Shown piece by piece: positions 6,149 to 6,272 of a stretch of 64,000 nt of DNA (the stretch's first letter is position 1; every line of letters begins with the position of its first letter). Both the position numbers and the translations under genes were made by a program. Source of the stretch: a virus (taxonomy: Duplodnaviria > Caudoviricetes); the IMG/VR virus record IMGVR_UViG_3300044712_000786, positions 138,705 to 202,704 of that record, one strand, 5' to 3'. The notes under the pieces are model-generated. The model ran no database searches. It saw only the letters and a program-made list of their open reading frames with translations, and was not told where the DNA came from.

Positions 6149-6272
6149 GGATTTCACTAATGTTCCATTAAAAAGTGTGCTGCCAATTACACTACCGGGG
6201 CATAAGCGCCCCAGAGAGGACTCGAACCTCTACTTCCTTCATCATGTCTATCCCTATGGAGGATTTCACTAA
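6149..6272 (-). ncRNA. YrlA-like Y RNA candidate (circularly permuted tRNA mimic)
   Basis: 5'->3' order is T arm (AGAGG-TTCGAGT-CCTCT), acceptor stem CTGGGGC/GCCCCGG closed by loop GCTTAT, then D arm (GTGTAATTGGCAGCAC); enclosed by 5'/3' pairing; flanked by 12-nt direct repeats TTAGTGAAATCC. Confidence 0.8.

Follow-up and report, generated by a model that had tools for sequence, protein, structure and literature searches.

Y RNAs of the YrlA type, from bacteria and phages, contain a tRNA-like domain in which T arm, acceptor hairpin and D arm follow one another in that order and a helix closes the domain at the anticodon position (PMC4201824). An A15-U48 alternative has been described for YrlA (Chen et al., 2014, PMC4201824), and YrlA RNAs are substrates of enzymes of the TruB, TrmA, DusA, RNase P and CCA-adding enzyme type (PMC4201824). 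In phage phiLo, a phage-encoded Ro60 protein is accompanied by the phage stem-bulge-stem RNAs Yrl1 and Yrl2, which are encoded directly upstream of its gene and have a CGAA motif; the paper on them mentions no likeness to tRNA (PMC12135203). The 3′ half is likewise encoded ahead of the 5′ half in the permuted tRNA genes of algae and archaea and in two-piece tmRNA genes. To our knowledge, Y RNAs with tRNA-like domains have been known only beside canonical Ro60 genes. DUF2828 is a domain that abounds in phages, with over 6,000 homologues in metagenomes, and that eukaryotes have as well.

Genomic Setting

The element described here, U2, is encoded by a jumbo phage. The stretch of DNA analysed, referred to as the window, comprises the final 64 kb of a viral record that is 202,704 bp long and has direct terminal repeats. 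A minus-strand tRNA cluster occupies the first 12 kb of the window, where ARAGORN places 14 tRNAs at 642-12166 (-), and U2 sits in this tRNA operon between two tRNA-Arg genes (Table 1).

Table 1. Features discussed in the text, with positions in the window except for the last row, which gives positions in record L085
Feature	Position	Strand	Remarks
Whole RNA unit U2	6146-6254	-	Closing stem, GAUAGA motif, inner helix, permuted tRNA-like domain, GGAACA block, AGUGAAAUCC motif
U2 closing stem, 5′ strand GGGAU	6250-6254	-	Pairs with AUCCC 6148-6152 in the MFE fold, the Rfam YrlA alignment and other family candidates
U2 GAUAGA family motif	6247-6252	-	Just 3′ of the closing stem and overlapping it
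U2 inner helix, 5′ strand AGGAAGU	6232-6238	-	Pairs with ACUUUUU 6170-6176; from sequence and MFE fold
U2 T arm AGAGG/UUCGAGU/CCUCU	6215-6231	-	Canonical loop UUCGAGU, G53-C61 pair
U2 acceptor hairpin CUGGGGC-GCUUAU-GCCCCGG	6195-6214	-	7 bp, one G-U, loop GCUUAU
U2 U8 A9 and D arm	6177-6194	-	D arm GUGU-AAUUGGCA-GCAC at 6192-6177
U2 3′ family motifs	6149-6166	-	GGAACA 6166-6161; AGUGAAAUCC 6158-6149, holding the closing-stem 3′ strand and equal to the downstream "direct repeat"
U1, tandem upstream paralogue	6256-6342	-	No tRNA-like insert; 52.5 bits, included in the family model; 3′ end is the upstream "direct repeat"
U3, third paralogue, about 58 nt	12274-12331	-	Beside tRNA-Pro; AGTGAAATCC and G[AG]GATAGA motifs
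tRNA-Arg(ACG)	6352-6427	-	Upstream neighbour of the element, same strand
tRNA-Arg(UCG)	6057-6132	-	Starts 13 nt past the last base of the element (6146)
DUF2828+DUF7788 protein, 491 aa	15173-16648	-	Ro60-like fold (predicted); 8.9 kb from the element, same strand
Stem+ACAGCAA small RNA	16659-16719	-	Ends 10 nt upstream of the DUF2828 start codon
Four tandem stem+ACAGCAA small RNAs	4322-4564	-	Signature match
Three paralogous RNAs of L085	8462-8600, 8680-8835, 9285-9440		Complete permuted tRNA including an anticodon-like arm

Searches brought up no close relatives of this phage. GenBank phages searched by blastn with positions 5400-7100 gave no match, a search for loci related through the ParB-like neighbour found none, and the PD-(D/E)XK neighbour led to distant relatives only, in which DNA identity is restricted to tRNA. 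One other metagenome contig, X3 from a further rhizosphere run, crosses the element and is identical to it; of the other three DNA runs compared, X4 gave no coverage and X5 and X7 cover only parts outside the element, with a single A>G difference at 7005. No RNA run was found to contain the region. An exact search with a 21-mer from the T arm and acceptor strand matched only ordinary or intron-bearing tRNAs. At L003 1450-1610, the T arm and acceptor strand of the element recur without change as a tRNA 3′ half; what appear by eye to be group I intron-like core motifs come before it, and ARAGORN calls no tRNA there.

A scan for sigma-70 promoters and terminators returned nothing above chance near the element. 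Since neither stands out, the simplest route to expression would be co-transcription with the flanking tRNA-Arg genes, which is probable, with release of the RNA as RNase P and 3′ processing mature the tRNAs.

Anatomy of the Element and Its Likeness to YrlA

The preliminary description read the locus as a T arm, an acceptor stem closed by a GCTTAT loop and a D arm, in that order, with an end pairing to ACTTTTT in place of the anticodon arm. All of these features are present on the minus strand, including the 7-bp acceptor hairpin with its GCUUAU loop (6214-6195) and the inner helix AGGAAGU/ACUUUUU, which has 7 bp, two of them G-U, and replaces the anticodon stem. The second end pairing proposed, TCCAT/ATGGA, is indeed complementary, but as the outer closure the MFE fold and the candidates from other phages favour GGGAU/AUCCC. 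This closing stem of U2 has only 5 bp and lacks the bulged C of most family candidates. Several of the candidates from other phages have AUGGAACA, nearly conserved, in the corresponding position.

The interior of U2 has the nucleotides expected of a folded tRNA. The D arm has 4 bp, and its loop AAUUGGCA contains G18 G19, A14 and A21; together with U8, U54 U55 C56, A58, the G53-C61 pair and A15 with U48, all nucleotides that make tertiary contacts in tRNA are present. No CCA is encoded in the acceptor hairpin. Scanned independently for a T arm followed by a closed 7-bp hairpin, two nucleotides and a D arm, the 202.7-kb genome has this T-acceptor-D module at a single site, and the three arms are kept in the centroid fold. 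In folding energy the element does not surpass shuffled sequences (z +0.67), and thermodynamics alone thus gives it no support.

In its T arm, acceptor hairpin and D arm order, in the helix that closes it at the anticodon position and in the elbow nucleotides that it keeps, A15-U48 included, U2 resembles YrlA (PMC4201824). The Rfam YrlA model (RF02553) aligns to 6143-6256 from end to end. In a 1.7-kb search the alignment scores 22.1 bits (E 0.098), far below the gathering score of 69, and the search at the gathering threshold returned no YrlA match for the element. The 22.1 bits come from the tRNA-like core; on clearly analogous modules of other phages the same model scores 22-34 bits. The architecture is thus YrlA-like, while Rfam membership is not reached. 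The YrlA architecture assigned in the preliminary description therefore holds for the T-acceptor-D layout inside an end-paired stem and fails on the score. Furthermore, no conserved stem sequence like that of YrlA was seen in the element when it was compared by eye with the Rfam consensus. Unlike YrlA, the element has a closing module from another family and lies in a tRNA operon rather than beside a Ro60 gene: YrlA is encoded next to a Ro60 (TROVE) gene, whereas the nearest Ro60-like gene here, of the DUF2828 type, is 8.9 kb away, and a search of the complete genome for a TROVE gene gave no match.

The gene order of U2 is also that of circularly permuted tRNA and two-piece tmRNA genes, and its transcript might accordingly be cut and rejoined into an RNA of translation; permuted tmRNA-like loci were in fact met in other phages (L029 and L032). 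Against this, U2 has no anticodon arm, there being no 7-nt anticodon loop, and no bulge-helix-bulge motif for splicing, and its 6-nt acceptor loop offers neither CCA nor a usable discriminator context. The roughly 40 nt between the D arm and the next tRNA leave no room for a tag reading frame or pseudoknots, and ARAGORN calls no tmRNA in the window. The RtcB ligase, which had been reported as missing from the window, is absent from the entire genome as well. With these differences from known permuted genes, such a role is highly improbable and close to refuted. As for the two loci in other phages, L029 136-189 and L032 7611-7664, a 5′ end resembling that of tmRNA (GGGGAUG..CUGGUAUUCGAC) comes after a T arm and the 3′ strand of an acceptor stem, and each of these sites, near DUF2828 genes, looks like a circularly permuted two-piece tmRNA gene.

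A Three-Copy RNA Family

The 12-nt direct repeats that were first noted around the element are exact copies of UUAGUGAAAUCC, at 6272-6261 and 6160-6149, 112 nt apart. Exact direct repeats at this distance would fit a mobile, tRNA-derived insertion flanked by a 12-bp target-site duplication. However, the repeat also occurs at the unlinked U3 and in other phages. The 10-mer AGTGAAATCC has exactly three sites in the 202.7-kb genome, all on the tRNA strand, where about 0.4 such 10-mers would be expected by chance, and G[AG]GATAGA stands 42-94 nt upstream of each. In RNA form, this second motif, GRGAUAGA, lies at the 5′ end of each of the three copies, U1, U2 and U3.

The three copies are alike in that the bases preceding GAUAGA pair with the bases following AGUGAA, and between U1 and U3 the closing pairs include a compensatory change from G-C to U-A. 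The upstream repeat is the 3′ closing strand of U1 and the downstream repeat is that of U2, which identifies both as family motifs and not as insertion scars. The repeats are thus real but do not flank the element, and a target-site duplication has almost negligible probability. U2 alone among the three has a tRNA-like interior. The plan proposed for the family would comprise a closing stem, GAUAGA, a variable interior, GGAACA and AGUGAAAUCC, with the permuted tRNA-like domain as the interior of U2.

Family Candidates in Other Phages

To collect candidates for the same family, IMG/VR was scanned with two patterns and the matches were filtered to keep those whose closure is paired. Some 40 passed, of which about 20 would be expected by chance, so that only recurrent, well-paired candidates were used. 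These come from the phage contigs L168, L273 with seven near-copies, L176, L186 (two), L241, L134, L107 and L255. Several of them share features for which they were not selected, namely AGAC after GAU, GGAACA a few nucleotides before AGUGAA, and a bulged C in the closing stem; U2 itself has the first two. Location likewise played no part in the selection: the candidates of L168, L273/L218, L186 and L241 lie inside tRNA clusters and on the tRNA strand, like the element, and an interior block is common to the L168 copy and U3. A tRNA-like insert was found in no other sampled family candidate.

The closing stem of the family consists of GAU/AUC and variable pairs. In an alignment of 11 sequences, 96% of the variable positions are paired, and at four pairs both partners change, compared with 29-47% pairing in slid-partner controls; the candidates were selected in part by a paired closure, which covers three of the tested pairs, so these stem statistics are partly circular. 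A covariance model built without U2, R1, aligned the whole of U2 and, with filters off in a search of 176 nt, scored it at 17.2 bits (E 6.6e-4), a modest score that corresponds to E of about 0.2 when scaled to the whole window, R1 E-values being rough. With default filters, U2 was missing from the window-wide search with R1, and in the R1 register two outer pairs of U2 are non-standard. Rfam has no family at the element or at the GAUAGA-family sites of L273 and L168, and in L107, whose family member lies at 3857-3935, the only reported Rfam match is elsewhere, at 990-1093. The comparison suggests a previously undescribed phage RNA family with this closing stem and apparent relatives in the tRNA clusters of other phages.

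Other readings of the conserved motifs were tried. A small ORF was rejected because near-identical copies differ by 1-nt indels right before AGUGAA. A hammerhead reading of AUGAUGA...GAAA was also rejected, C3 being missing, the spacing wrong and the motif present in neither U1 nor U3. A K-turn or loop-E arrangement of GAU/AGA opposite AGUGAA/AUC, judged by eye, is a possible further reading.

Two of the contigs yielded further observations. At L168 6157-6399 (+), right after a tRNA in a phage tRNA cluster, the sequence weakly matches archaeal RNase P RNA, with 34 bits against a threshold of 84 (E 1e-6). In the tRNA cluster of L186 that has the two GAUAGA/AGUGAAAUCC RNAs (3814-4021), another permuted T-acceptor-D module, at 4437-4494 (-), precedes tRNA-Met by 17 nt; the related record L194 encodes DUF2828.

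DUF2828 Proteins and Their Associated RNAs

The protein 9 kb from the element had been described as Ro60-like and of the DUF2828 type, and this assignment is borne out by its DUF2828 and DUF7788 domains and by the Ro60-like fold of its predicted model. The AlphaFold model of the 491-aa protein (pLDDT 86.6) finds its best full-length matches in the Ro60 proteins of phage phiLo, Xenopus, human and Deinococcus (TM 0.46-0.62, Foldseek E down to 6e-7). Phage phiLo Ro60 (9l5y, 9kop) is the best structural match, and Swiss-Prot models were also matched. Full-length matches to Ro60 structures justify the label "Ro60-like" for the modelled protein.

A survey of 80 phage loci encoding DUF2828 homologues (L002, L005-L083) revealed a type of small RNA linked to these genes. 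Its terminal stem has at least 7 bp, with ACAGCAA immediately following the 5′ strand and UG or UAG following the 3′ strand, and the interior is variable. Across the 80 loci, 149 such RNAs are on the strand of the DUF2828 gene versus 10 on the opposite strand. The 500 nt upstream of the DUF2828 start hold 70 of the 149, and in 42 loci this interval contains one or more. In the core of ACAGCAA, C, G, C and the final A are invariant in all 16 aligned RNAs. The permuted T-acceptor-D module is enclosed by an ACAGCAA stem in 18 RNAs of other phages, 10 of them with a perfect acceptor stem, and the number of RNAs with an enclosed module is accordingly given as at least 10-18. No family in Rfam 15 covers these RNAs, and a literature search found no paper linking DUF2828 to Y RNAs. 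The suggestion that a Y-RNA-like system extends to the DUF2828 family gains weight from the ACAGCAA RNAs that adjoin DUF2828 genes, some with the permuted module, and genomic association supports the view that DUF2828-type proteins may have Y-RNA-like, partly tRNA-like RNA partners.

The ACAGCAA RNAs also resemble the Class I RNAs of Dictyostelium, which have been published as unique to dictyostelids (PMC7919456). In both, a short terminal stem and ...ACAGCAA are combined with an interior that varies, and the RNA ends in CUG(U). On the Class I model (RF01414) the five ACAGCAA RNAs of the window score 25-29 bits, and in one other record the model reaches 22 bits; the threshold of 41.5 is never reached, so that membership in RF01414 was rejected and the likeness is one of resemblance only.

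Relation of the Element to the DUF2828 Protein

The preliminary description held that the element is the Y RNA of this Ro60-like protein, whose gene is 8.9 kb away. In such a pairing, the closing stem would bind the protein, and the tRNA-like domain would tether it to other RNA enzymes. Several observations are consistent with such a pairing. The layout of the element is YrlA-like, and the predicted model of the DUF2828+DUF7788 protein matches Ro60 structures over its full length. The 18 permuted modules of other phages lie within ACAGCAA stems. In addition, L186 and L194 carry the same two GAUAGA-family units, with DUF2828 encoded in L194's record, G009 (the one scored), and the record of L241 also encodes DUF2828.

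However, although the element shares with the ACAGCAA RNAs a modular build of terminal stem, adjoining conserved motif and variable interior, it has GAUAGA and AGUGAAAUCC where the DUF2828-linked RNAs have ACAGCAA and GUCUUG. It lacks both the ACAGCAA signature and a GUCUUG/GUCUAG 3′ end, and its closest local equivalent, ACAUGAU, breaks three of the invariant ACAGCAA positions. The window already contains five RNAs with the signature, one of them directly upstream of the DUF2828 gene. The element does not adjoin that gene, its 8.9 kb exceeding the distance of about 600 nt used to assign an RNA to the DUF2828-linked type; nearly half of the ACAGCAA RNAs lie at most 500 nt upstream of their gene. 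The family tells the same way: R1 has no match within 10 kb of 80 DUF2828 genes (1.55 Mb), DUF2828 occurs in only 2 of 19 records with the family motif, and two family records rated 100% complete have neither DUF2828 nor TROVE. No link of the element's closing family to DUF2828 or TROVE genes is apparent.

Because the closing stem is from a different family, the claimed pairing with the Ro60-like protein of the phage is not supported. Going by these motifs, we consider it unlikely that the element serves as the Y RNA of this protein, and it is probably not its partner; the five ACAGCAA RNAs of the window appear to be better partner candidates.

The Permuted Module on Other Closing Stems

The permuted module also occurs on further types of closure. 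L085, a 202,778-bp phage record that shares the tRNA-Arg and PD-(D/E)XK neighbourhood with the window, has three paralogous RNAs. The closure of each consists of two covarying helices that flank a conserved internal loop in which CCUCG faces CCACUC. One of these modules comes directly after tRNA-Arg(ACG), as in the window. Neither DUF2828 nor TROVE was matched in the L085 record, which is rated 83% complete. In L129 the module lies in a record that encodes a TROVE protein, and from this co-occurrence in one record it is taken as the classical arrangement and as a positive control. Another closure type is seen in L096 and L130, which have neither DUF2828 nor TROVE. Four closure types are counted here: ACAGCAA, GAUAGA/AGUGAAAUCC, the CCUCG/CCACUC internal loop of L085, and the TROVE-linked type.

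In the DUF2828 loci (1,088 T-loop-like words) there are 12 strict modules in 1.49 Mb, versus 5 in 2.02 Mb of unrelated phage DNA (623 words). These background counts indicate that the module follows tRNA density and not DUF2828 as such. The DUF2828-specific part is the ACAGCAA closure.

A wider scheme that would unite these observations is tentative, and as a whole we rate it as rather doubtful. In it, the permuted tRNA-like domain would be an exchangeable phage cassette mounted on several unrelated closing modules, each serving a different protein as its handle; the stem+ACAGCAA RNAs would be the separate Y-RNA class of a second Ro60-like clade formed by the DUF2828 proteins; and the Class I RNAs of Dictyostelium would be the Y-RNA analogues of eukaryotic DUF2828 proteins.

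Possible Function and Significance

The elbow of the element differs from that of the tRNAs encoded around it. All 14 tRNAs of the window have G at position 2 of the T-loop (e.g., UGCAAAU) and most lack the GG of the D-loop, which amounts to a rewired elbow throughout the tRNA set of the phage. The element keeps the canonical UUC and GG, unlike these tRNAs, and is therefore not a recent copy or debris of the neighbouring tRNA genes.

This contrast bears on whether the element does anything at all. Tandem identical tRNA genes with a short spacer give exactly the T-acceptor-D order, and a fragment left by rearrangement or deletion, with the T arm of one copy and the D arm of the next, might simply have been caught in a U-type RNA as a functionless by-product. 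Some modules of other phages still have N-CCA after the acceptor 3′ strand, and the singularity of the insert among the sampled family candidates and the lack of a thermodynamic signal would suit such an origin. However, all stems and tertiary-contact nucleotides are intact, the elbow is canonical where that of the local tRNAs is not, and the same architecture is found on at least four different closing stems in unrelated phages, a recurrence that points to selection for the module. A by-product of this kind is thus conceivable but improbable.

The explanation that we favour, at about even confidence, is that U2 is a modular RNA of the tRNA operon in which a family closing stem is combined with a YrlA-type permuted tRNA-like interior, and in which a host-type elbow may act as decoy or tether. 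Since the elbow is canonical in the element and rewired in the tRNAs of the phage, a mimic of host-type tRNA is the most likely role. [quoted passage not shown] The conserved closing module would serve as a handle that binds some further factor, following the modular logic of Y RNAs.

The locus adds to the known distribution of such RNAs, as a genome with no canonical Ro60 has the same tRNA-like domain in a tRNA operon, on a different conserved closing stem. DUF2828 is a large domain without an assigned function, and its proteins, together with their own conserved small RNAs, offer RNA-protein pairs that can be tested directly. Ultimately, these observations suggest that tRNA mimicry may be a general, modular tool of large phages with many tRNA genes.
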